Source: an uncultured archaeon (GTDB lineage: Archaea > Aenigmatarchaeota > Aenigmatarchaeia > QMZP01 > JACQNV01). Taken from it: a DNA stretch of 64,000 nucleotides. The stretch spans positions 78,207 through 142,206 of the forward strand of contig CAYPFW010000002.1 in the NCBI GenBank assembly GCA_964410585.1, read 5' to 3'. The notes beneath the pieces were generated by a model. The model saw nothing but the letters and a program-made list of their open reading frames with translations. It had not been told where the DNA came from and made no database searches. Positions 1-59,898 of this stretch are shown piece by piece. Position 1 is the stretch's first letter; each line of letters begins with the position of its first letter. The position numbers and the translations under genes were made by a program.

Positions 1-672
1 AAAAATCCAAGAAAAACATTACCGAAAGCGCTTGTAATTTCATTAATAATATCAACAATACTTTACATTTTAGTTTCTGTGGCATCTGTAGAAATTTTAG
101 GTGCTGAAAAACTGGCAGCATCAAAGGCTCCTTTGACAGAAGTTGTCACCAAAGCCATACCAAATGCCTCTCTCTTAATGTCTATAATTGCTTTGTTCGC
201 AACTGGAAATACTGTGCTTATTATCCTTATAGTTGTTTCAAGAATTCTATATGGAATGTCAAACCAACATTCCCTTCCAAAATTCTGTTCAGCTGTTGGA
301 AAAAGAGGAACTCCATATGTAGCAATAGCTCTTGTAGGTATAGTTACAGCTTTGTTTGCGGCTTTAGGTAACCTTAAGCTTATAGCATCAGTGACTGATT
401 TAGGTGTGTTTATTGCATACTTTTTTGTAAATTTGGCACTGATAAAATTGAGGTATAAAAAAGGATATATTGGAAGTGGTTTTAGGAGTCCGAGCATTGG
501 AAGGTTTCCTATCCTGGCTCTTTTTGGTTTGATAACATCAGTTATATTGTTTTTCTATTTTGATTTGTATGTTTGGTTTTTGGAACTATTATCAATAGTA
601 TTAGGATTCATAATCTATAGAGCTTTCAAAAGGAATCAGAAATACAAGTTATCTAAAAGATTTAGCACATGA
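1..672 (+). CDS. Amino acid permease (APC family), C-terminal part; the 5' end lies outside the window
   Basis: The open frame runs from position 1 (no stop) to 672. The product is polytopic and hydrophobic with a C-terminal layout typical of an APC permease (e.g. ILIIVVSRILYGMS, FIAYFFVNLALIKLRYKK). Confidence 0.6.
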   Translation, partial: KNPRKTLPKALVISLIISTILYILVSVASVEILGAEKLAASKAPLTEVVTKAIPNASLLMSIIALFATGNTVLIILIVVSRILYGMSNQHSLPKFCSAVGKRGTPYVAIALVGIVTALFAALGNLKLIASVTDLGVFIAYFFVNLALIKLRYKKGYIGSGFRSPSIGRFPILALFGLITSVILFFYFDLYVWFLELLSIVLGFIIYRAFKRNQKYKLSKRFST

Positions 673-1201: not shown

Positions 1202-3538
1202 ATGACAACGGAAAAAGTCCAAATCAGGGTAGAGGGCATGCACTGTGCTAGCTGCGCAGCTAAAATAAAATCTGCTTTAAAAAAGGTTGATGGAATAAAA
1301 AATTCAAACGTAAATGCGCTTACTAAAATTGCGCTTGTAGAATTTGAAAGCAAAAAAATTGATTCTCATAAAATTATTAATTTGATAAAAGGTCTTGGTT
1401 ATAAACCTTTTCTAGAATCAGTAGACCAAGGTTCCACTGCCACAGATCCTGTTTGTGGAATGAAGATTGAGAAAAGTAAGTCAATAAAAAAAGAATTTGC
1501 TGGAAGAATATACTACTTTTGCTCTGAGGAATGTGTCAATAAGTTTGAGTCGCCTGAACAGGAATTAAAAAAAATGAAAAGAAGGGTCACAGTAGCCCTT
1601 TCTGGTGTGCTTTTCCTCGGAATAATTCGTGTAATAGCAATGTTCGCTTTGGCTGCAGGTGCCTCAATTGTGACATGGGTTCCAATACCAAGTCTTCCAT
1701 ATTTCACTTGGGGTGTTTGGCTCTTTTTGATAACAACGCCAATCCAGTTTATCGGTGGTTGGGGATTCTATAAAGGCGCATACACAGCTTTGGTGAACAA
1801 AAGAATAAACATGGATATTCTGATAACAATTGGTACTCTAACAGCTTACATATACAGCGTTTTTGTTGTTTTCTTCCCAAACGTTTTGCCTGTAGACGAA
1901 ACTAATGTTTACTTTGAAGTTTCTGCTGTCATAATAGCTTTTGTTCTGCTTGGAAAATTTATGGAAGATTATATGAAAAGAAGGACGTCTGCTGCTGTCA
2001 GAAAATTAATGGATATGCGGCCGCAGACTGCAACAGTGATAAGAAATGGGAAGGAAAAAGAAATTCAGGCTGACCAAATTGTTGTCGGTGATATAATTGT
2101 TGTAAGGCCTGGGGAAAAAATACCAACGGATGGAATTATAGTAAGTGGATACACTTCAATAGATGAGTCAATGGTGACAGGAGAGAGCATACCAGTTGAA
2201 AAAGAAAAAGGCGATGAAGTCATTGGTGCGACTGTGAACAAGCATGGTTTGATAAAATTTGAAGCGACAAAAATTGGTGCAGAAACGACATTGATGCAGA
2301 TTGTGAAAATGGTTGAAGAGGCCCAGGGATCGAGTGCGCCAATACAAAGACTTGCAGACAAAGTTTCCAGCTATTTTGTGCCAGCTGTAATCGGAATTGC
2401 TGTTTTGTCATTTTTAGTTTGGTATTTAGTTTTAGGTAACTTCACTCTTGGTCTTCTATCGTTTATAGCTGTTTTGATAATTTCTTGTCCATGTGCTCTG
2501 GGGATAGCGACACCTGCGGCGCTTATGGTTGGTGTTGGAAAAGGAGCAGAGAGCGGCATTTTGATAAGAGGTGGAGAGTATTTGGAACGGACACAGAAAT
2601 TGAACACGATTATTTTTGACAAAACAGGAACACTAACAAAAGGGCAACCTGTTGTCACTGATATTGTTTCAGAAAGCCCAAAAGACTTGATCAAGTTTGC
2701 TGTAATCGCAGAGAAAGGTTCAGAGCATCCTCTTGCAGATGCAGTAATGGAAAAAGCAGAAGAGATGAAAATAAAAATCCCAGACGCTGATAGGTTTGAG
2801 GCTGTTCCAGGGCATGGTGTGAAAGCTATTTTTGGAAAGAACAAGATATTTGTTGGAAACAGGAAACTGATGGCCAAAAATTCAATAGATATCAAGGCCT
2901 TTGAAAAAAGGATGGAAGGCCTGGAAAGTGAAGGGAAAACTGTGATGTTGGTTTCTTTGGATAAAAAAGTTCTGGGAATTGTTGCAATTGCAGACACTTT
3001 GAAAGAAACGTCGAAGGAAACAGTAAAACAGCTTTCTGATTTGGGTGTTCAAACAATTATGTTGACGGGCGACAATGAGAAAACAGCTAAATCAATTGCA
3101 AAAAGTGTTGGAATAGAAAATGTGATAGCAAATGTTTTGCCTGGAGAAAAAGCTAATGTTGTGAAAAAAATCCAAAAAGAGGGCAAGGTCGTTGCAATGG
3201 TTGGAGATGGGATAAATGATGCGCCTGCTTTAGCCCAAGCAGACATAGGAATAGCAATTGGTTCTGGGAGCGATGTTGCAAAAGAGACAGGTGGAATAAT
3301 CCTTGTAAAAGATAATCTTCTAGATGTTGTAACAGGTATCAAGCTAAGCAAGGCAACAATGAGAAAAATAAAACAAAATCTATTCTGGGCATTTGCCTAC
3401 AATGCAGCTGCAATACCAATCGCAGCTTTTGGAATGCTGAACCCAATAATAGCTGCAGCAGCAATGGCCTTGAGCTCGCTTACAGTTGTTGGAAATTCTG
3501 CGCTTCTGAAGAGGTATAAAATAAGAGTTGAGAATTGA
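1202..3538 (+). CDS. copA: Copper-exporting P1B-type ATPase (CopA-like) with an N-terminal HMA domain and a YHS/TRASH domain
   Basis: HMA motif [15 protein letters not shown]; YHS/TRASH motif DPVCGMKI...[12 protein letters not shown]; membrane CPC motif (SCPCALG); phosphorylation motif DKTGTLT; GDGINDAP hinge. Length 778 aa. Confidence 0.9.
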
Positions 3539-5711: not shown

Positions 5712-6230
5712 ATGAAAAAAGAGACGATAAAGTCAAATGGTCTATTAGACCATACAATAAAGGTGCTAAAAAAGAATTCAAAAACATTTTTAGTAGCCAC
5801 TGTTTTGTTTGGTCTTATATATACATTCATATATGGATTATGGCTTATCCCTGCAATAGGTTTTGGGTTCCATAGAGACTCAGCTGTTACAGTTTTGGAT
5901 TGGGCCTATTTGCCTCTAGTATCGCTGATGTCTGGTTCCTTGGTTACACTAATGAAATATAAATTAAATACAATGAGTACAAGTACAATTGGTGGATTTG
6001 GTGGTGTAGTAGCCGGTTTGGGTGCTGCTTCGTGCCCGGTTTGCCAAGGAGTGACCATAGCAGCTTTCGGTGGAAATATAGCTTTCCTCTCATTCGGCGA
6101 TTTCTCGCCATTTGTTTGGGTCTTCCAAGCAACTGCTGTTTTTATTCTCTGGATATCATTATATTTAACTGCAAATAATCTATATACAAATAATTGCATT
6201 GGGTGCATTTCAGGCAGAAAGCCTAGATAA
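5712..6230 (+). CDS. Hypothetical polytopic membrane protein with a CPVCQG motif
   Basis: About 4-5 predicted TM segments and a Gly-rich stretch GGFGGVVAGLGAASCPVCQG. No confident family. Confidence 0.35.
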   Translation: MKKETIKSNGLLDHTIKVLKKNSKTFLVATVLFGLIYTFIYGLWLIPAIGFGFHRDSAVTVLDWAYLPLVSLMSGSLVTLMKYKLNTMSTSTIGGFGGVVAGLGAASCPVCQGVTIAAFGGNIAFLSFGDFSPFVWVFQATAVFILWISLYLTANNLYTNNCIGCISGRKPR

Positions 6231-51485: not shown

Positions 51486-52478
51486 TTAGAATAGGCTTTT
51501 TATAATAAGCGTGCCATAGCTGCCCTTTGGAAGCTCGAAGGAAATACTAAGCTTCTTATTTTTGTTTATTTCGTCTTCTCCTATTTTCCAGGAAACTCTT
51601 TTAGGGAAAACCAAAAAATCCCTTTCATCTCCCGGAAAGCTTATTTCTTTGAAAATATTTTTGAAGTCCTCGAGTTTAATGCCTTCTTTTTTTAGTAGCT
51701 TTTGGATATTTTTCTTTATTTTTGGATAGCTCTCCAATCTTGTTGCAAATCCAACAACCGGAATTTTAAAGTTAGATGTTTTTTCAGACGCCGATTCCAT
51801 AACATAAGATCTTGCCAGTGTATTCCACAAATAGGACTGGTAAGAGTTCACAAAAAGCATCTTCAAGTTTTTAGGCAAGCACTCTAAAGCGCCTTGAAAA
51901 TCATTTGGGTTTTTGCCCAAATATTCTAATACTTTATTCTCCCATTGACCTTTGTTTTTCACAAACAGGTTAACAGCGGCCTCGAAATCTTTTTTAACCA
52001 AGTATTTGCCAATTAAATGGTTCTTTTTGGTCAGTCCAAATCTCTGCTCATCAAAAAGGTTTACAACACCCCTTTTTAGTTTTTCTATTCTTTTATCCAA
52101 TCCTCTAATGTCCTTTTTGAACAAATCTCTTACAACTATTTCAAACCTATTTCCCTTCAAATCCTTTGTTTCAATCCTTCTGTTGTTTTTGTCAAGGTTA
52201 GAGAGCTCAACATCTTTTATTTGTATTTTTTTCAAAACTTCTTCAGAAACTCTCCAAGCTGAAACTGTTTGGTAGGTAACAGCATTTTTGTCTTTCAATC
52301 CAACATATGAAAACCGATTTGTAGAGACGCCGCATTTTTTAGCCAATAGATCCAAAACCTTGAACAGTTCCCAATTTTTTTTCTTCAAAGTAAACCAAGT
52401 ATACTCGCCCTCGCCAATTGGTTTTTTAGAAACAATTTCTTTGACAATGAAATCTTCTGGGAGTTGTTTGATTTTCAT
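51486..52478 (-). CDS. truD: tRNA pseudouridine(13) synthase TruD/Pus7-like
   Basis: N-terminus LPEDFIVKEI; catalytic Asp context VGLKDKNAVT. Confidence 0.7.
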   Translation of the reverse strand: MKIKQLPEDFIVKEIVSKKPIGEGEYTWFTLKKKNWELFKVLDLLAKKCGVSTNRFSYVGLKDKNAVTYQTVSAWRVSEEVLKKIQIKDVELSNLDKNNRRIETKDLKGNRFEIVVRDLFKKDIRGLDKRIEKLKRGVVNLFDEQRFGLTKKNHLIGKYLVKKDFEAAVNLFVKNKGQWENKVLEYLGKNPNDFQGALECLPKNLKMLFVNSYQSYLWNTLARSYVMESASEKTSNFKIPVVGFATRLESYPKIKKNIQKLLKKEGIKLEDFKNIFKEISFPGDERDFLVFPKRVSWKIGEDEINKNKKLSISFELPKGSYGTLIIKSLF

Positions 52479-52488
52479 ATTTGAATAT

Positions 52489-52533
52489 TATTTTTCTTTA
52501 TGTACGGCTCTCTTTCTTTTTCTAAAAGAAATA
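52489..52533 (+). ncRNA. Copy C of the repeated intergenic element (degenerate: TTTTTCTTTATGTACGGCTC plus 8-bp hairpin TTTCTTTT/AAAAGAAA)
   Basis: Matches copy B over CTTTCTTTTTCTAAAAGAAA; the 3' box is lost. It sits 11-55 bp upstream of the truD start. Confidence 0.35.
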
Positions 52534-52537
52534 ATAA

Positions 52538-53191
52538 TTACACAAATCCTAAAATATCTGATATCCTCTCCAACTCGGGTCCAGATGTTTGGAAACCAAC
52601 TAATAAACCGGATGAATTTGTAATGACCCCAGATTTTACGTAAGAATATCCGAAATTCACAGTTGCTGGTCCTGATTTAACTTTCAAAACATCTTCCAAA
52701 ACTCTTTGCTCATGTTCAGTGATGTTCTTTGCAGTTAAGCATCCTTTATTATTGGCCGCTCCATATGTTCCAACTAAGTCTATTCCAAAAATTGTTGATA
52801 TTTCTGTCTTCACACCAAGGAAATCCTGTATCTTATTTTTTTGATAAGCCAATTTTTCTGATATCAGGCACCCTTTATCATTTGCCAAAACAAGGTTACC
52901 CAAGGCTGTATGCCTTCCCTCCAAAACAAGCACATTTGCCTGCTTTTTCAAGCTTTCCAATTCCCTGTTTCTTATGATTTCAGGGACAAGTATACCATTT
53001 GAATTTCCAGCGCAAAATATTCCTGGAAGGTCTGTACCAGAGATTTTGTTTTGGATAATTTTTACATTTAGTGCTTCGTGTAATTTGTCTGCCTCTTTCT
53101 TCATTACTTCGCCAACTAAACAATATCCATCAGTAGCAAAGGCATAGAGTCCTATGTTCGGATCATTGCTAAAGGCCAATTTATCGATCAT
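52538..53191 (-). CDS. eif6: Translation initiation factor 6 (aIF6)
   Basis: Pentein-fold repeats with ALGN and repeated G-[ST]-x-N motifs; 217 aa. Confidence 0.75.
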   Translation of the reverse strand: MIDKLAFSNDPNIGLYAFATDGYCLVGEVMKKEADKLHEALNVKIIQNKISGTDLPGIFCAGNSNGILVPEIIRNRELESLKKQANVLVLEGRHTALGNLVLANDKGCLISEKLAYQKNKIQDFLGVKTEISTIFGIDLVGTYGAANNKGCLTAKNITEHEQRVLEDVLKVKSGPATVNFGYSYVKSGVITNSSGLLVGFQTSGPELERISDILGFV

Positions 53192-53221
53192 ATCGGTTCT
53201 TTTAATTTATTAGTTTAAATA

Positions 53222-53905
53222 TTGAGCATGAGAGCTACATACAACCATTTGGCAGAGAATTATGATTTGAGGCAGGATAATCCAGCAACAAGACTACTCA
53301 GGAAAAAAGAAGAAGCTTTGATAAGAAGGTTTTCTAAAGGAATGGTTTTGGACCTTGGTTGTGGTACAGGAGCTCATTTGACTCTTGTTGAAAATTCAAT
53401 TGGTTTGGACATTTCAGAAAAAATGCTCAAAAAAGCAAAATCAAAAAGCAAGCCTCTGACCCAAGGAAACATTGAAAGTCTTCCAATAAAACCAAATTCC
53501 TTTGATTCTGTTTTCTGTTTTTATTCTACATTAAACATGGTAGATTTAGAAAAATCCTCTGAACAAATATCTAGAACATTAAAAACAAATGGGAAGATAA
53601 TAATTTCAGTAGTTAGCGTAAATGATATTGATGATTATAGATCATCTCCAGAAAACAAAATAAAAAAATTTAGGTTGGAGGGAAAACCAGTAAACATGAG
53701 GCTCTTCGAGAAGGAGGAAGTTGCTGAGGCTTTTCAAAAATTGGGACTAAAGCTTGTATATTTCAATTCAATCTTTAGGACACAGACTCCTAGATGGGGA
53801 AACTTCCAAAAATATTCTTTTTTTGAAAAATTAAAACTAAAAACAGAATGCGTTTTTCCAAAGAAATGGGGAAGGATCTACTTGATGGTTTTCAGTAAAA
53901 TCTAG
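53222..53905 (+). CDS. Class I SAM-dependent methyltransferase
   Basis: Motif I VLDLGCGTGAH. Confidence 0.75.
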   Translation: MSMRATYNHLAENYDLRQDNPATRLLRKKEEALIRRFSKGMVLDLGCGTGAHLTLVENSIGLDISEKMLKKAKSKSKPLTQGNIESLPIKPNSFDSVFCFYSTLNMVDLEKSSEQISRTLKTNGKIIISVVSVNDIDDYRSSPENKIKKFRLEGKPVNMRLFEKEEVAEAFQKLGLKLVYFNSIFRTQTPRWGNFQKYSFFEKLKLKTECVFPKKWGRIYLMVFSKI

Positions 53906-54870
53906 TCCTTCAACATTTTCTTAAAATTTTCTATTAAAGGCACAGGTGTTGGGTCTGTTTTATATTCCAAAGCCAGGAAATAGCTGATCCAATCTCCAAG
54001 ATAAATGGTTGTTATTAACTTCTCCAGAAAATTGTCTCCAGAAACATCTATGTATATTGATTCTATTTTGTTTTCAAGAGCTAGTTTTTTAACAACAACC
54101 ATTCTTTTTCTGACCATTTTATAGTCTTCTTCATCTTTCAAAAAAACAAAAGCAAAGTTCCCTTTTGGATTTATAATACCATTTATCTCATTGTGGTTGT
54201 GCTCAGGAAACACATTACAGAAGGCCATTGTTTTTGCGTTTTCGTTGATGTTTATTTTCCATTTGTATGCTGCAGCTTTCAGCCTTTCTGAAGAATAAAT
54301 TATTGGAACTTTATTTACCAAACTTTTGGAGATGCTTCTTGCTTTTTCTTCTAAATTCAAACTTCTCATTTTGGTTTCTAATTTTTCAATAATTTCCTTC
54401 TGGTTTTCCACAAGCCCGGAGTTTTCCAATACACCAAGCATGGAGAAAAACTGGTAGCAGTAAGACATCCTCGGTTGGATAGTTTCAGGTATTTTTATAA
54501 TGGGGCTTTTTCCTGTAGCTAATTTTTCGAGCTGTCCTCCATATGTTAAAACAACACAATTTAATTTTCTTTCAAGAGCTTGATTGTATGCTTCTAGTGT
54601 TTCTTCTGTGTTCCCAGAATAGCTTACAATAAAAAGAAGCGTTTTGTTGTCCAAAAAATTAGGGAGTTGATAATCCTTTAAAGTGAAAATTGGGATTTTA
54701 GATGAAGATAGGTAAGATTTCAAAATCTCTCCACCAAGGCCGCTTCCACCCATGCCTGCAATAGCAATCTTATCAACACCATTTATTTTTACACCTTTAG
54801 CAAGTTTATAGCCTTCTATAACCTGTTTATGTATCTCTTTTAGTGCAGAATACATGTTTAGACTGTCAAT
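53902..54870 (-). CDS. SIS-domain bifunctional phosphoglucose/phosphomannose isomerase
   Basis: DKIAIAGMGGSGLGGEIL SIS motif plus a second SIS half. The ORF extends to 54942, overlapping the upstream gene, so an internal Met start is preferred. Confidence 0.65.
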   Translation of the reverse strand: MDSLNMYSALKEIHKQVIEGYKLAKGVKINGVDKIAIAGMGGSGLGGEILKSYLSSSKIPIFTLKDYQLPNFLDNKTLLFIVSYSGNTEETLEAYNQALERKLNCVVLTYGGQLEKLATGKSPIIKIPETIQPRMSYCYQFFSMLGVLENSGLVENQKEIIEKLETKMRSLNLEEKARSISKSLVNKVPIIYSSERLKAAAYKWKININENAKTMAFCNVFPEHNHNEINGIINPKGNFAFVFLKDEEDYKMVRKRMVVVKKLALENKIESIYIDVSGDNFLEKLITTIYLGDWISYFLALEYKTDPTPVPLIENFKKMLKD

Positions 54871-54892
54871 CATAGAAAGAGTTAGCAAATGA

Positions 54893-55735
54893 CTATTTAA
54901 CCAATTTCCTAAATTCTGCTTCCACAACAACATGATAAACATTCGGCGCGTAATCTTTCACAATTTTCTTCTCCAAAACTTTGTCCAGTCTGAACCCATT
55001 TTCTTTTGCTGATTTTTCCAAATTTTTCAGAGGTTTGTCCCAAAGTTCTTTTTTTGAAAAAATATTGTGATAGACAATGATTCCTCTATCTTTCAAAAAT
55101 CCAAAAGCTGATGGAAGGAATTTGTCTGTCCCTGGAAAATATCCCATTAAAACTCTATCTGCCTTATGTGGGATTTTGGTTTTCCTGCAGTCCCCGTATA
55201 TCGGTTCTATATTTTTTATTTTGTTTAACCTAACATTTTCAACAAGATAGTCAAAGGCTGTTTTGTTCTTCTCAATTGAGTAAATTTTCTCAGTGTTTGT
55301 GTATTTGGCCAAATTTAGGGAAAAGTATCCGATCCCGGCAAACATATCAACAATAATTTCGCCTGGTTTTATTTTTTCCAAGAGCCTTTTCCTCTCTAAA
55401 AGGTTTCCTTTTGAAAACATTATTTTAGAAACATCAATTTTGTAAAAAATTCCGTTTTCCTTGTGTATGGTTTCTGTTGTTTTACCAAGCAAAATTTTCA
55501 ATTTAGGCTTCCTGAATTCTCCAGAAACTTGTTTTATTTCGCAAACAGTTTTTATGTATGGAAGAAGCTTCTGCGAAGCCGCTGCTATCTGTTTTTTCTG
55601 TTTCAATATTTTGATTTTGGAGAGCTTTAGAAGAAGTATATCTCCAATAATTTGATAAGAAGATGGTAGAAGTTTAGAATCAATTTTTGTAAGCTCGGAA
55701 AGTTTTTCCTTAAAGGACATAATATAGCTTGACAC
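54893..55735 (-). CDS. Trm5/Taw2-family (Met-10+ like) tRNA methyltransferase
   Basis: IVDMFAGIGYFSLNLAK motif I; about 280 aa. Confidence 0.7.
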   Translation of the reverse strand: MSSYIMSFKEKLSELTKIDSKLLPSSYQIIGDILLLKLSKIKILKQKKQIAAASQKLLPYIKTVCEIKQVSGEFRKPKLKILLGKTTETIHKENGIFYKIDVSKIMFSKGNLLERKRLLEKIKPGEIIVDMFAGIGYFSLNLAKYTNTEKIYSIEKNKTAFDYLVENVRLNKIKNIEPIYGDCRKTKIPHKADRVLMGYFPGTDKFLPSAFGFLKDRGIIVYHNIFSKKELWDKPLKNLEKSAKENGFRLDKVLEKKIVKDYAPNVYHVVVEAEFRKLVK

Positions 55736-55776
55736 ATCTTTTCGATCTTAATACTAAAGATATGTCCAATTGTTAA

Positions 55777-56268
55777 TTATTTTTTCTCTTCTGTTTTTGG
55801 CTTAGCAGCCTGTTTTGCTTCTGGTTTTGGTTGAATCTTATGTTCTTCTTTCTTTTCTTGTGTTGGTTTTGCCGAAGCCTCAGAACCATCCTCTTTTTTC
55901 TTTTTGAATTCCTCGAGTTCTTTCTTTTCTTCTGATGTAAGAGGAGCTTGTTCACCTTTCTTTCCAAGAAGCTTTTCCTTCAAAGTCTTTTTAACTTCTT
56001 TTGGTTTCATTTTTTCATCTGGTAGAAGAACATTGACAACAGGTCCGTCCTTTATTGCTTTTACTTGTATTTTTCCAGGAACCCACTTTGAGCCACTCTG
56101 GTGAAGGAATTGGTTTATTCCACTGGATATTTTGACATCCTCTGCTTTCATGTGCCTGTAGAAATATGCTCTTATAGCATTTGCTGCAGCTGTGTGCCTT
56201 TTTAATTTGGGCCTGTCTATCCAACTCTTCTTCAATGGAACTGTCAATAATTTCTCTTCAATAGCCAT
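55777..56268 (-). CDS. rpl31e: 50S ribosomal protein L31e with a Lys-rich C-terminal extension
   Basis: MAIEEKLLTVPLKK...RAYFYRHMK...; K/E-rich tail. Confidence 0.8.
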   Translation of the reverse strand: MAIEEKLLTVPLKKSWIDRPKLKRHTAAANAIRAYFYRHMKAEDVKISSGINQFLHQSGSKWVPGKIQVKAIKDGPVVNVLLPDEKMKPKEVKKTLKEKLLGKKGEQAPLTSEEKKELEEFKKKKEDGSEASAKPTQEKKEEHKIQPKPEAKQAAKPKTEEKK

Positions 56269-56269
56269 A

Positions 56270-56440
56270 CTAAACCTTTAGTTTGCTCTTCCTCCAATGT
56301 TTTACTTCGTTGACTCTTATTCTTCTTGATCGTGCCCTTTTAAGGCTGAACTTTTTGATGTCTGCCCATCTTGGAGCTGACCTAGATTTGCCTAATTTAA
56401 TTAGTTTCTTCTTTTTTCCAGATGTCTTATTTCTTCCCAT
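56270..56440 (-). CDS. rpl39e: 50S ribosomal protein L39e
   Basis: Manual translation of the minus strand gives MGRNKTSGKKKKLIKLGKSRSAPRWADIKKFSLKRARSRRIRVNEVKHWRKSKLKV (56 aa); it is not in the supplied ORF track. Confidence 0.75.
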   Translation of the reverse strand: MGRNKTSGKKKKLIKLGKSRSAPRWADIKKFSLKRARSRRIRVNEVKHWRKSKLKV

Positions 56441-56534
56441 AACCTCTTATCCTAAAAGGTTAATCAAAACAGGAGGCTAAAATTTTCCTCAGTTAGCTTC
56501 GGAAAATTTTTAAACGCCTTCCACGACTAACCCT

Positions 56535-56804
56535 TCAGCGAAATTTAATATTAAAGTCTTTTTTTCCAGCTTGGAGCATTTGTAAAACCTGTTTCATTTG
56601 CTCATCTGTTATTTGTGACTGGATTTTGCCTGATTGAACAAGTTGAATCAAATATAACTCAACTTGGCCTGCTAATTGAGGGTTTACGAGCTTTACTCTG
56701 TTTATCCTCTCAAATGCTTCCTTATCTAATATGGAAGTCAAAACTTTTTTTTTCATTTCCTCCAGTTGCTTCATTTGTTCTGGAGTTATCTGATCTTCTC
56801 CCAT
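56535..56804 (-). CDS. PDCD5/TFAR19-like DNA-binding protein
   Basis: 89 aa, ...LVNPQLAGQVELYLIQLVQSGK... has the typical layout. Confidence 0.65.
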   Translation of the reverse strand: MGEDQITPEQMKQLEEMKKKVLTSILDKEAFERINRVKLVNPQLAGQVELYLIQLVQSGKIQSQITDEQMKQVLQMLQAGKKDFNIKFR

Positions 56805-56805
56805 A

Positions 56806-57237
56806 TTAAGATGAAAGTGTTTTTGCTGTTTCGTTTAAAAGTGATATTCCTTTCTTGTTTAATTTTCTTCCAAGCACTTTTCCCTTTTCATTTTTCTGTA
56901 AATCTAAATATCCTGCTTTTTGCATCTGACCCATTATTGTCCTTATTACCTTTCCAGACCCTGGGAATTTGTGCTCTGGTTTATGTCCTCTATTTTTCCT
57001 TCCACCATAAACTTTCCTAAGCCTGTTCACACCAATTCCTGGCTCCAAATAAAGTTTTCTAAATAAGCTTGCAGCTCTCAAATACCACCAATTGCTTTGT
57101 GTAGGCGGCCTTTGCTTGCTTGTGCCTGTTTTGACATAGCTAGCCCATTCTGGTTTTTTGAATTCCTGCATTTTTTCCAGCTTTTCAGCTAAGCTGTTTA
57201 TCAAATTTTGCGTGTCAACGTCTTTCACAGATACCAT
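56806..57237 (-). CDS. rps19e: 30S ribosomal protein S19e
   Basis: 143 aa; ...YLRAASLFRKLYL...GGRKNRG.... Confidence 0.8.
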   Translation of the reverse strand: MVSVKDVDTQNLINSLAEKLEKMQEFKKPEWASYVKTGTSKQRPPTQSNWWYLRAASLFRKLYLEPGIGVNRLRKVYGGRKNRGHKPEHKFPGSGKVIRTIMGQMQKAGYLDLQKNEKGKVLGRKLNKKGISLLNETAKTLSS

Positions 57238-57252
57238 ATATCTCCATTATAT

Positions 57253-57609
57253 TCAATTTGCTCTTTTTAAATGTTTTTTGGCTGCTTTTTCCCTCCTATA
57301 AGGAAATCTTATCTTTTTTCCGCATTCTTTGCACAAAACTTCAACTGCTTTCTGTTTAGTGTTTGCCCTGTGCACAGAGTTTACCCCAGGGACAAGATAG
57401 GATTTGCAGTGTTTGCAAAATTTTCTTTTGAGTTCTTTTTGAATCTTGACATTGTATCTCATGCCAATTTTTCTGGCCAATTCAACATACCTGTTTGCAT
57501 ATTTTTTGTTTTCCTTGAATTCTTTTTCAGCTAAATCGAAAAGGATTGCTATTCTTTCTTTTGCTATGTCTGTTTGCCATTTTGGCTTATCTCTATTTCT
57601 GCGATCCAT
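57253..57609 (-). CDS. rnp4: RNase P protein subunit Rpp21 (Rpr2/RNP4)
   Basis: Zinc ribbon CKHCKSY...CKECGKK and a basic N-terminal helix. Confidence 0.7.
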   Translation of the reverse strand: MDRRNRDKPKWQTDIAKERIAILFDLAEKEFKENKKYANRYVELARKIGMRYNVKIQKELKRKFCKHCKSYLVPGVNSVHRANTKQKAVEVLCKECGKKIRFPYRREKAAKKHLKRAN

Positions 57610-58381: not shown

Positions 58382-58456
58382 TTATATAAATGGGGTTACC
58401 CGGATTTGAACCGGGGTCGGACGCTCCCAAGGCGCCAATCCTAAGCCAAGCTAGAC
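58382..58456 (-). tRNA. tRNA-Pro (anticodon UGG)
   Basis: Cloverleaf: acceptor GGGGTTA/TAACCCC, anticodon stem GGCGC/GCGTC with loop CTTGGGA, T-loop TTCAAAT, discriminator A; 75 nt, no encoded CCA. Confidence 0.85.
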
Positions 58457-58664
58457 GATAACCCCATATATCTAAAGGATTTATTCTTATTGTTTTAAAT
58501 AGTAATATATGAATATGGATCAGATGATTTCTACCTTAGAAACCGCTCTTATAGAATGTGGATACTGTGGAGCAAAAAATTTTAAAAGTACATGCGCAGA
58601 AATGTCTTACAAAACTTGTTCTAGGTGTTTGGGATCTTTGAAAATTTAAGCTTTTTTATTAAAA

Positions 58665-59762
58665 ATGTGTATGTACCTTGAATATGTAAGAACTTACCTT
58701 TCAGCAGATGAAAGGTTGACAGAAAAACAAAGAGACAGGCTAGCTCAAAGAATCATTAGATGGGCAGAAGATAATGATGTAAGAGACATAAGTAGATTGC
58801 ATGACAAGCTTGTTGATTGGATCGATCAGCCTTCGATTCAAGAGGAGAAATTTGAAAATGTTGAACATCCATTGGATAATGATGGCGATGTCAACCTTTT
58901 AGAAGACCCAAAATCACAAACACCTGTTGATTTGTTTGTTATAGGAGAACGAGAGATACTAACTGGAGACCAACTGAGGGGAATGATACTTGAGGAAAGT
59001 CCAGAATTGTCTGGTATTGCCTCTGTCATATTGCCTGAGAGCAGAGTTGTTGGCGACAATGTAGATTTAGATGGAATTGAAAACAGACTTAGAGGTATTG
59101 TTCCAAGAATCAAATGTGGTAAACTTCTTATCCCACAAAAACAAGTTCTGTGTATACGTTTTGATGAAAGTGGAAATTTGCAGATAGCCTACAAAAGAGG
59201 CTATCAGGATGACAGAGTCAATGAGGCTCTGAGGCTTTATTCTGAATTATTGACAGTCCAGGAAATAGGCCCTAGAATAGGTGTGAGCCCATCAACAGTT
59301 TGCACTTGGCTGTACAAGGATATGGGCCTGATGCCGGCACGCGACCTAAAAGTTGCAAGACAAATACAAACAGCAGTGAAACTTTTTGATGAAGGCAAGG
59401 AAGTACAGGAAATTATGGATATAATGAAATCGACACAGACAACTGTCTGGAGATGGTTGAATAGAGCTGGTGTTGAGTTCAACTCAAGGGGACCAGAACC
59501 TTGGGTATATGAGACTAAAGTCAGACTCAGTTTGTCGGATTTAGATGAAATATATTCCCAAATAAATCCAACTTTTAGACAAAGAAACAACTACAGGGAA
59601 ATTTTCAAATACATAAAAAATTTTGAGAAAGAAAACAAAAGAGGTCCAAGCAGAGATGAAATTTCAGATGCTCTTGGTGTTGATCCTTGGAAGACGCTTC
59701 AAGTTTTTGTTGAATATGGGATCTTAGAAAAAAGAAGGCTCCCAAGACGATTTTATGTCTAA
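58665..59762 (+). CDS. Hypothetical protein with multiple helix-turn-helix-like segments
   Basis: Three HTH-like stretches (GVSPSTVCTWLYKD, TTVWRWLNRAGVEF, ISDALGVDPWKTLQVFVEYGIL). It is flanked by tRNA-Pro and tRNA-Thr. Confidence 0.35.
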   Translation: MCMYLEYVRTYLSADERLTEKQRDRLAQRIIRWAEDNDVRDISRLHDKLVDWIDQPSIQEEKFENVEHPLDNDGDVNLLEDPKSQTPVDLFVIGEREILTGDQLRGMILEESPELSGIASVILPESRVVGDNVDLDGIENRLRGIVPRIKCGKLLIPQKQVLCIRFDESGNLQIAYKRGYQDDRVNEALRLYSELLTVQEIGPRIGVSPSTVCTWLYKDMGLMPARDLKVARQIQTAVKLFDEGKEVQEIMDIMKSTQTTVWRWLNRAGVEFNSRGPEPWVYETKVRLSLSDLDEIYSQINPTFRQRNNYREIFKYIKNFEKENKRGPSRDEISDALGVDPWKTLQVFVEYGILEKRRLPRRFYV

Positions 59763-59763
59763 A

Positions 59764-59850
59764 AGCCCCAAGGGAGAATTGAACTCCCAACCTACAGTTT
59801 ACGAAAATCGACATACAAATTCTGTCGCTCTACCATTGAGCTACTGAGGC
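59764..59850 (-). tRNA. tRNA-Thr (anticodon CGU) interrupted by a 15-nt intron at the non-canonical position 30/31
   Basis: Exon 1 = 59822-59850, intron = 59807-59821 (AATTTGTATGTCGAT), exon 2 = 59764-59806. The spliced product has anticodon stem ACAGT/ACTGT, loop TTCGTAA, T-loop TTCAATT, discriminator U. The splice sites sit in 3-nt bulges (AG^A and AT^T) flanking a perfect 4-bp helix CGAC/GTCG (relaxed BHB). Confidence 0.7.
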
Positions 59851-59898
59851 ACATATAATTATCAGATAATCGCATTTTATAAATACCGAAAACTAATT

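Follow-up and report, generated by a model that had tools for sequence, protein, structure and literature searches.

Which tRNA is encoded on the minus strand at positions 59764..59850 of the 64,000-nt stretch of DNA analysed here (the window), and where is its gene interrupted? The locus was matched by the Rfam tRNA model (RF00005) with 51.5 bits (E = 3.8e-08; gathering score 29), in an alignment that left a 24-nt block in the anticodon arm unaligned. Together with the intron mode of ARAGORN (-i) and the identity to the tRNA-Thr(CGU) gene of a member of the Aenigmatarchaeota (locus L008), this match supports an intron-containing tRNA-Thr(CGU) gene with a pre-tRNA body of 87 nt, the minus-strand sequence of which, written as exon, intron and exon, is GCCTCAGTAGCTCAATGGTAGAGCGACAG-AATTTGTATGTCGAT-TTTCGTAAACTGTAGGTTGGGAGTTCAATTCTCCCTTGGGGCT. 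The 87 nt recur unchanged in assemblies from three sequencing runs (ERR4904390, ERR4904392 and ERR3478686), so the locus is not an assembly artefact. [quoted passage not shown]

All 15-nt excisions between positions 26/27 and 43/44 were enumerated. Removal at 30/31 was the only one that combined five paired anticodon-stem positions (ACAGU/ACUGU, 5 bp) with a loop bearing U33 and a purine at position 37, yielding the 7-nt loop UUCGUAA with anticodon CGU and A37. Excision at 39/40 also left five paired stem positions, but its loop, AUUUGUA, carries U37. The earlier note had judged an intron at the canonical 37/38 site to be a poor reading, and indeed this excision gave a mismatched stem (ACAGA/ACUGU, with A opposite A) and the loop AUUUGUA with U37, and no BHB was present at that register. 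What the same note had proposed in its place, namely the 15 nt AATTTGTATGTCGAT at plus-strand coordinates 59807-59821 lying after position 30, with stem ACAGT/ACTGT, loop TTCGTAA and anticodon CGU, is what the enumeration returned, and the coordinates proved exact; the discriminator U, also claimed there, is read at 59764. Shifting the gap would alter the mature sequence, since A30 and U45 (index numbering) are different bases.

The 5′ exon (59822..59850, minus strand; tRNA positions 1-30, index 1-29), delimited by the enumeration and the ortholog alignment, holds the 5′ strand of the acceptor stem, the D-arm, G26 and the ACAG of the anticodon stem. The 15-nt intron AAUUUGUAUGUCGAU (59807..59821, minus strand) is placed between standard positions 30 and 31 by the enumeration, by a gap against seven orthologs and by the register of the BHB; we infer that it is removed by splicing. 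The 3′ exon (59764..59806, minus strand; positions 31-73), for which folding energies were considered besides the enumeration and the ortholog alignment, comprises U31, the loop UUCGUAA, ACUGU, the variable loop AGGUU, the T-arm, the 3′ strand of the acceptor stem and the discriminator. The anticodon CGU, which reads ACG (threonine), lies at 59801..59803 (minus strand; acg on the plus strand) and was obtained both with ARAGORN and by the enumeration. The predicted mature tRNA is 72 nt long, with no encoded CCA, and its junction would read ...ACAG|UUUCGUAA... or, in a longer form, ...GCGACAG|UUUCGUAAACUGU....

Orthologous genes were sought with the query AGAGCGACAG-N(0-30)-TTCGTAAACTGT in one genome per prokaryotic species. 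The 31 loci that matched were all tRNA-Thr(CGU) genes, intron-less at this point, each with a gap of 1 nt between the two halves of the query. The nucleotide in the gap was T in 31/31 cases (ACAG-T-TTCG) and A in none, exactly what excision at 30/31 predicts. The two loci nearest to the predicted mature tRNA were L008 (66/72 identical positions) and L016, from the Micrarchaeota (65/72). When the window pre-tRNA and seven orthologs were aligned with MAFFT, a clean 15-nt gap opened between ACAG and TTTCGT. Synteny also supports orthology with the tRNA-Thr(CGU) of relatives: in L008 and L013 a homolog of the MJ0538-family gene of the window lies close to the tRNA gene, and the tRNA gene of L009 adjoins a HIT-protein gene 57% identical to the one in the window.

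The scan brought up two further observations. Four of the matching loci (L014, L015, L017 and L023) belong to bacteria (Omnitrophota and Planctomycetia), and their tRNA-Thr(CGU) genes share with the archaeal ones an identical 23-nt string covering the D-stem and the anticodon arm; this string is therefore not diagnostic of lineage. The loci L001-L006, L010-L012, L018-L022 and L025-L031 are tRNA-Thr(CGU) genes of Methanomassiliicoccaceae. Their anticodon arm is identical, the sequence immediately 5′ of AGAGC is not that of a tRNA, and ARAGORN failed on these genes or miscalled them; the sequences indicate a D-loop intron conserved across the family.

The BHB was examined using the published geometry (PMC4090602, PMC3239211), that is, a 4-bp central helix (H) flanked by 3-nt bulges on opposite strands, with the cuts after the second nucleotide of each bulge. 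A strict scan found a single complete h-B-H-B-h′ arrangement in the whole 87 nt, at the 30/31 register (index 21-48; 59803..59830, minus strand). In index numbering, all four pairs of H are formed (C24-G42, G25-C41, A26-U40 and C27-G39; CGAC/GUCG, index 24-27 with 39-42), the inner helix h′ has 2 bp (A31-U38 and U32-A37) closing the loop UUGU, and the outer helix h has 3 bp, one of them G.U (G21-C48, A22-U47 and G23.U46). The cuts fall after the second nucleotide of the 5′ bulge (A28 G29^A30) and of the 3′ bulge (A43 U44^U45). The scan thus reproduced the perfect CGAC/GTCG helix and the cuts within 3-nt bulges (AG^A and AT^T) that the earlier note had described. That note had called the motif relaxed; by the definition of PMC3239211, in which the strict motif is 3-4-3 hBHBh′, it is formally strict, with flanking helices of minimal size. 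When the intron was shuffled 200,000 times, 4/4 pairs in H and two or more in h′ came up at this register in 0.2% of the trials, and random introns of 36% GC reached the same pairing in 0.08%; chance alone is thus a poor account of the motif. The scanner is conservative, for it missed two introns of relatives with relaxed motifs, that at the canonical site of L038 (H 3/4) and the second intron of L009 (4-nt bulge). Intron-containing copies homologous to this 30/31 intron, which might have provided covariation for the BHB, were found neither in the genome scan, nor in a metagenome scan, nor among 12 HIT-linked loci; the two matches that the metagenome scan returned for exon-anchored copies were chance matches in non-tRNA sequence.

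Energetically the motif is not the favoured fold of the free RNA. The BHB conformer was calculated at -16.2 kcal/mol, against -22.2 for a cloverleaf with the intron left open and -25.3 for the minimum free energy structure, so that it lies 6-9 kcal/mol above the competing folds. In the free-RNA ensemble three pairs of H had probabilities of about 0.71 while C24-G42 reached 0.15; those of h and h′ stayed below 0.01, and a competing A28-U38 pair had a probability of 0.68. To form, the BHB must recruit one strand from each of two tRNA stems, 3′ in the D-stem and 5′ in the anticodon stem, so both of these have to melt. With the D-stem retained and H reduced to 3 bp, a conformer resembling a relaxed HBh′ motif came to -20.3 kcal/mol. 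In either conformer the endonuclease would have to capture or induce the structure.

Other placements of the boundaries were weighed against this evidence. Intron-aware ARAGORN, which the earlier note had suggested as a check, upheld a tRNA-Thr(cgt) with a 15-nt intron but shifted the boundaries 1 nt 3′, removing AUUUGUAUGUCGAUU between positions 31 and 32. The anticodon remains CGU on these boundaries, but the stem becomes ACAGA/ACUGU with A opposite A at 31:39 and thus only four paired positions, and the mature cloverleaf is weaker by 1.7 kcal/mol (-23.2 against -24.9 for the 30/31 product). An A at position 31 is moreover found in 0/31 orthologs, and cuts after the third nucleotide of each bulge lie outside BHB geometry, for which ARAGORN has no model. 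The 30/31 boundaries thus suit the mature stem and the BHB better, and those drawn by ARAGORN are very unlikely to be the ones used. Still further from the data are a tRNA-Gln(UUG) with a canonical 37/38 intron, for which it can be said that the excision is arithmetically possible, and a tRNA-Lys(UUU) that lacks an intron and has a long variable arm, which is the default output of ARAGORN. The latter candidate, tRNA-Lys(ttt), was rejected for its A33, its G.A pair and an extra arm that is long and unpaired; the former meets the defects of the 37/38 product described above, the strict scan finding no 4-bp H there. The body of the tRNA is in addition orthologous to tRNA-Thr(CGU). Enumeration, orthologs and alignment effectively refute both of these assignments.

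It might also be supposed that the 15 nt are an insertion that is never spliced out, having turned the tRNA into a pseudogene with a fortuitous BHB-like pairing. The low stability of the BHB conformer and of its flanking helices speaks for this, as does the ease with which loose candidates arise by chance (22 partial BHB-like arrangements in the same 87 nt); the 30/31 intron is, besides, unique to the organism of the window. Yet the complete motif stands at precisely the register that the mature tRNA dictates, a coincidence with a frequency of 0.002 among shuffled introns; the exons fold into a flawless cloverleaf with the identity to L008 given above; and relatives routinely bear non-canonical introns in the orthologous gene. 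A TATA-box-like element, TTTATAAA (59876..59883, minus strand), read from the sequence as a putative archaeal promoter, sits 26-33 nt upstream of tRNA position 1. The 40 nt upstream of the gene are conserved in L038, the closest relative. The intact exons and this conserved promoter region argue for a live gene, and loss of function through the insertion appears improbable, if less so than the misplaced boundaries. A tRNA-Thr(CGU) spliced at 30/31 thus remains the preferred reading.

The window has a G+C content of 36.6%. Its genes for L31e, S19e, Rpr2 (a subunit of RNase P), TYW2/Trm5 and TruD are archaeal, and the HIT protein encoded next to the tRNA gene has its best named homologs in Candidatus Aenigmarchaeota; on these grounds the host is, judging from its genes, an Aenigmarchaeota-like archaeon of the DPANN group. 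The gene order is common to loci such as L043 (Trm5, L31e, dsDNA-bind, S19e, Rpr2, MJ0538, a gap and HIT), so the region is orthologous. Genes for tRNA maturation are clustered on the minus strand at 51486-57609 (TruD at 51486-52478, TYW2/Trm5 at 54893-55735 and Rpr2 at 57253-57609), beside the two tRNA genes of the window, the second being a tRNA-Pro(UGG) at 58390-58466 (minus strand). No hidden or partial tRNAs beyond these two came up when the entire window was scanned with Rfam at permissive settings. Between them, at 58671-59762 on the plus strand, lies an ORF for a 363-aa protein with HTH_23/HTH_7-type helix-turn-helix domains; its stop codon comes within 2 nt of the tRNA-Thr 3′ end. Among 5.8 billion proteins this product matched only itself (an ORFan), and neither L043 nor L044, both syntenic, has the ORF. 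One copy of an imperfect 15-nt direct repeat lies just upstream of it (58630-58644) and the other within its 3′ end (59717-59731), and the ORF may have been inserted here. A repeat search for att-like tRNA duplications around it returned only short, unconvincing two-copy repeats.

The syntenic tRNA-Thr gene was then compared among relatives, ranked by the identity of the neighbouring HIT protein to that of the window. The closest, L038 (85%), has at 299-409 (minus strand) an orthologous tRNA-Thr(CGU) with 38 nt inserted at 37/38 (H 3/4, h of 5) and lacks the 30/31 intron. Its intron is unrelated in sequence to that of the window, which implies independent gain or loss at a short evolutionary distance. 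In L044 (60%) the tRNA-Thr(CGU) carries 26 nt in the D-loop (H 4/4, h′ of 2); this gene and an adjacent tRNA-Pro(UGG) occupy 2733-2831 and 2863-2968 (plus strand), the latter having a 39-nt insertion in its T-loop. L046 and L047 (59%) have a tRNA-Thr(GGU) with 31 nt at the D-loop site of L044 (1053-1156, minus strand, in L046). This intron and that of L044 are similar in sequence (CCTC..TTCC...GGCAGTYAA), and the similarity suggests that the two D-loop introns are related although housed in different isoacceptors. In L049 to L051 (58%), tRNA-Thr(CGU) (1222-1276, minus strand, in L049/L050; 207-261, minus strand, in L051) has about 47 nt inserted in the T-loop. Beside the gene of L049/L050 stands a tRNA-Pro-like gene (1370-1430, plus strand) whose D-arm is nearly absent in the Rfam alignment (32 bits). 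L009 (57%) has two non-canonical introns in its tRNA-Thr(CGU) (5916-6144, plus strand), one of 104 nt at 15/16, whose BHB is strict and has an inner helix of 10 bp, the other of about 51 nt at 59/60 with UUCG/CGAA as H; the gene was detected neither by ARAGORN nor by the Rfam tRNA model at E<=0.1. The genes of L008, L013 and L016 are intron-less. The stretch N-N-N-G-U-UUCGUAA is contiguous in all these relatives; the 30/31 intron, being found in none of them, is therefore specific to the organism of the window. A very recent, lineage-specific gain of this intron, in a syntenic orthologous gene whose intron configuration differs in almost every sampled relative, can be proposed tentatively, at somewhat less than even odds.

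The processing that the gene would undergo follows the established steps of archaeal tRNA splicing. The pre-tRNA would be transcribed from the TATA-like promoter and its ends processed, and CCA would be added post-transcriptionally, since none is encoded. GAG-CGAC (the 3′ strand of the D-stem, G26 and the first bases of the anticodon stem) would pair transiently with the GUCG at the 3′ end of the intron, and also with U32-U33-C34 of the 3′ exon, completing the BHB. The endonuclease EndA would then cut at G30^A and U^U31, leaving a 2′,3′-cyclic phosphate and a 5′-OH; an RtcB-type ligase would join the exons, after which the D-stem and the anticodon stem would refold normally. In this layout h derives entirely from the exons (G22-A23-G24 with U32-U33-C34), and the intron is as small as the layout allows: of its 15 nt, 8 form h′ (2 bp) with the tetraloop that it closes, 4 belong to H, and the bulges take 1 and 2 nt. 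Genes for EndA or RtcB were found neither in the 64 kb by a phmmer search with an approximate Methanocaldococcus-type (M. jannaschii) EndA query and a motif screen, which is a weak test, nor by Pfam in 20 of its ORFs.

The site itself has precedents. The earlier note over-rated its novelty, as 30/31 is among the established non-canonical intron positions (PMC4090602). The tRNAs of Thermoproteales (Crenarchaeota) have non-canonical BHB introns at positions that include 29/30 and 30/31 (Marck & Grosjean 2003, Sugahara 2008, reviewed in PMC4090602). The window intron is like these in lying in the 5′ strand of the anticodon stem at 30/31, in having 3-nt bulges flanking a 4-bp helix, in a motif built partly from exon sequence and in the variable intron positions of its orthologs; it differs in its minimum size (15 nt) and in its host, which is not a TACK hyperthermophile but a DPANN archaeon of low GC. 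The split tRNA-Lys(CUU) of Nanoarchaeum equitans (also a DPANN archaeon) and Staphylothermus (PMC4090602) shares the break point 30/31 and the BHB-dependent joining, but consists of two separate transcripts joined in trans, whereas the tRNA-Thr gene is contiguous with an intron in cis. ARMAN-2 (Micrarchaeota), another DPANN host with short non-canonical tRNA introns (13 nt at 59/60), cuts them with an epsilon2 EndA of broad specificity, and its genome holds both strict and relaxed BHBs (PMC3239211). The ARMAN-2 introns lie at 53/54 and 59/60 and their cleavage was demonstrated in vitro, whereas cleavage of the window intron is predicted from sequence. Finally, tRNA gene disruption is increased in several DPANN lineages with an alpha4 EndA bearing the L3 loop (PMC5829648), where, as here, disrupted tRNA genes are numerous and are overlooked by standard predictors. 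The species set of that study is without Aenigmarchaeota, and turnover of intron positions at one orthologous locus is not described in it.

The gene adds an intron of a known type and leaves the known splicing mechanism unchanged; its main value is for annotation, along with a modest evolutionary point. Default gene finders misannotate it (ARAGORN reports tRNA-Lys(UUU)), so that pipelines depending on them would assign the wrong amino acid, and in the relatives they also overlook the majority of the tRNA-Thr and tRNA-Pro genes that are interrupted. As a consequence, the tRNA sets of Aenigmarchaeota MAGs look incomplete unless BHB-aware tools are used. The locus also offers a clean example of an anticodon-stem intron of minimal length in a DPANN archaeon. 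The comparison of sequences indicates that intron positions turn over rapidly at a single orthologous tRNA locus within Aenigmarchaeota, which fits the reported co-evolution of tRNA disruption with splicing endonucleases of broad specificity. Should the recent gain proposed above be true, the 15-nt intron would be a minimal one, with its outer helix drawn entirely from exon bases, and the Aenigmarchaeota clade would be a second natural system, after Thermoproteales, in which to follow, over short evolutionary distances, the gain, loss and relocation of BHB introns.
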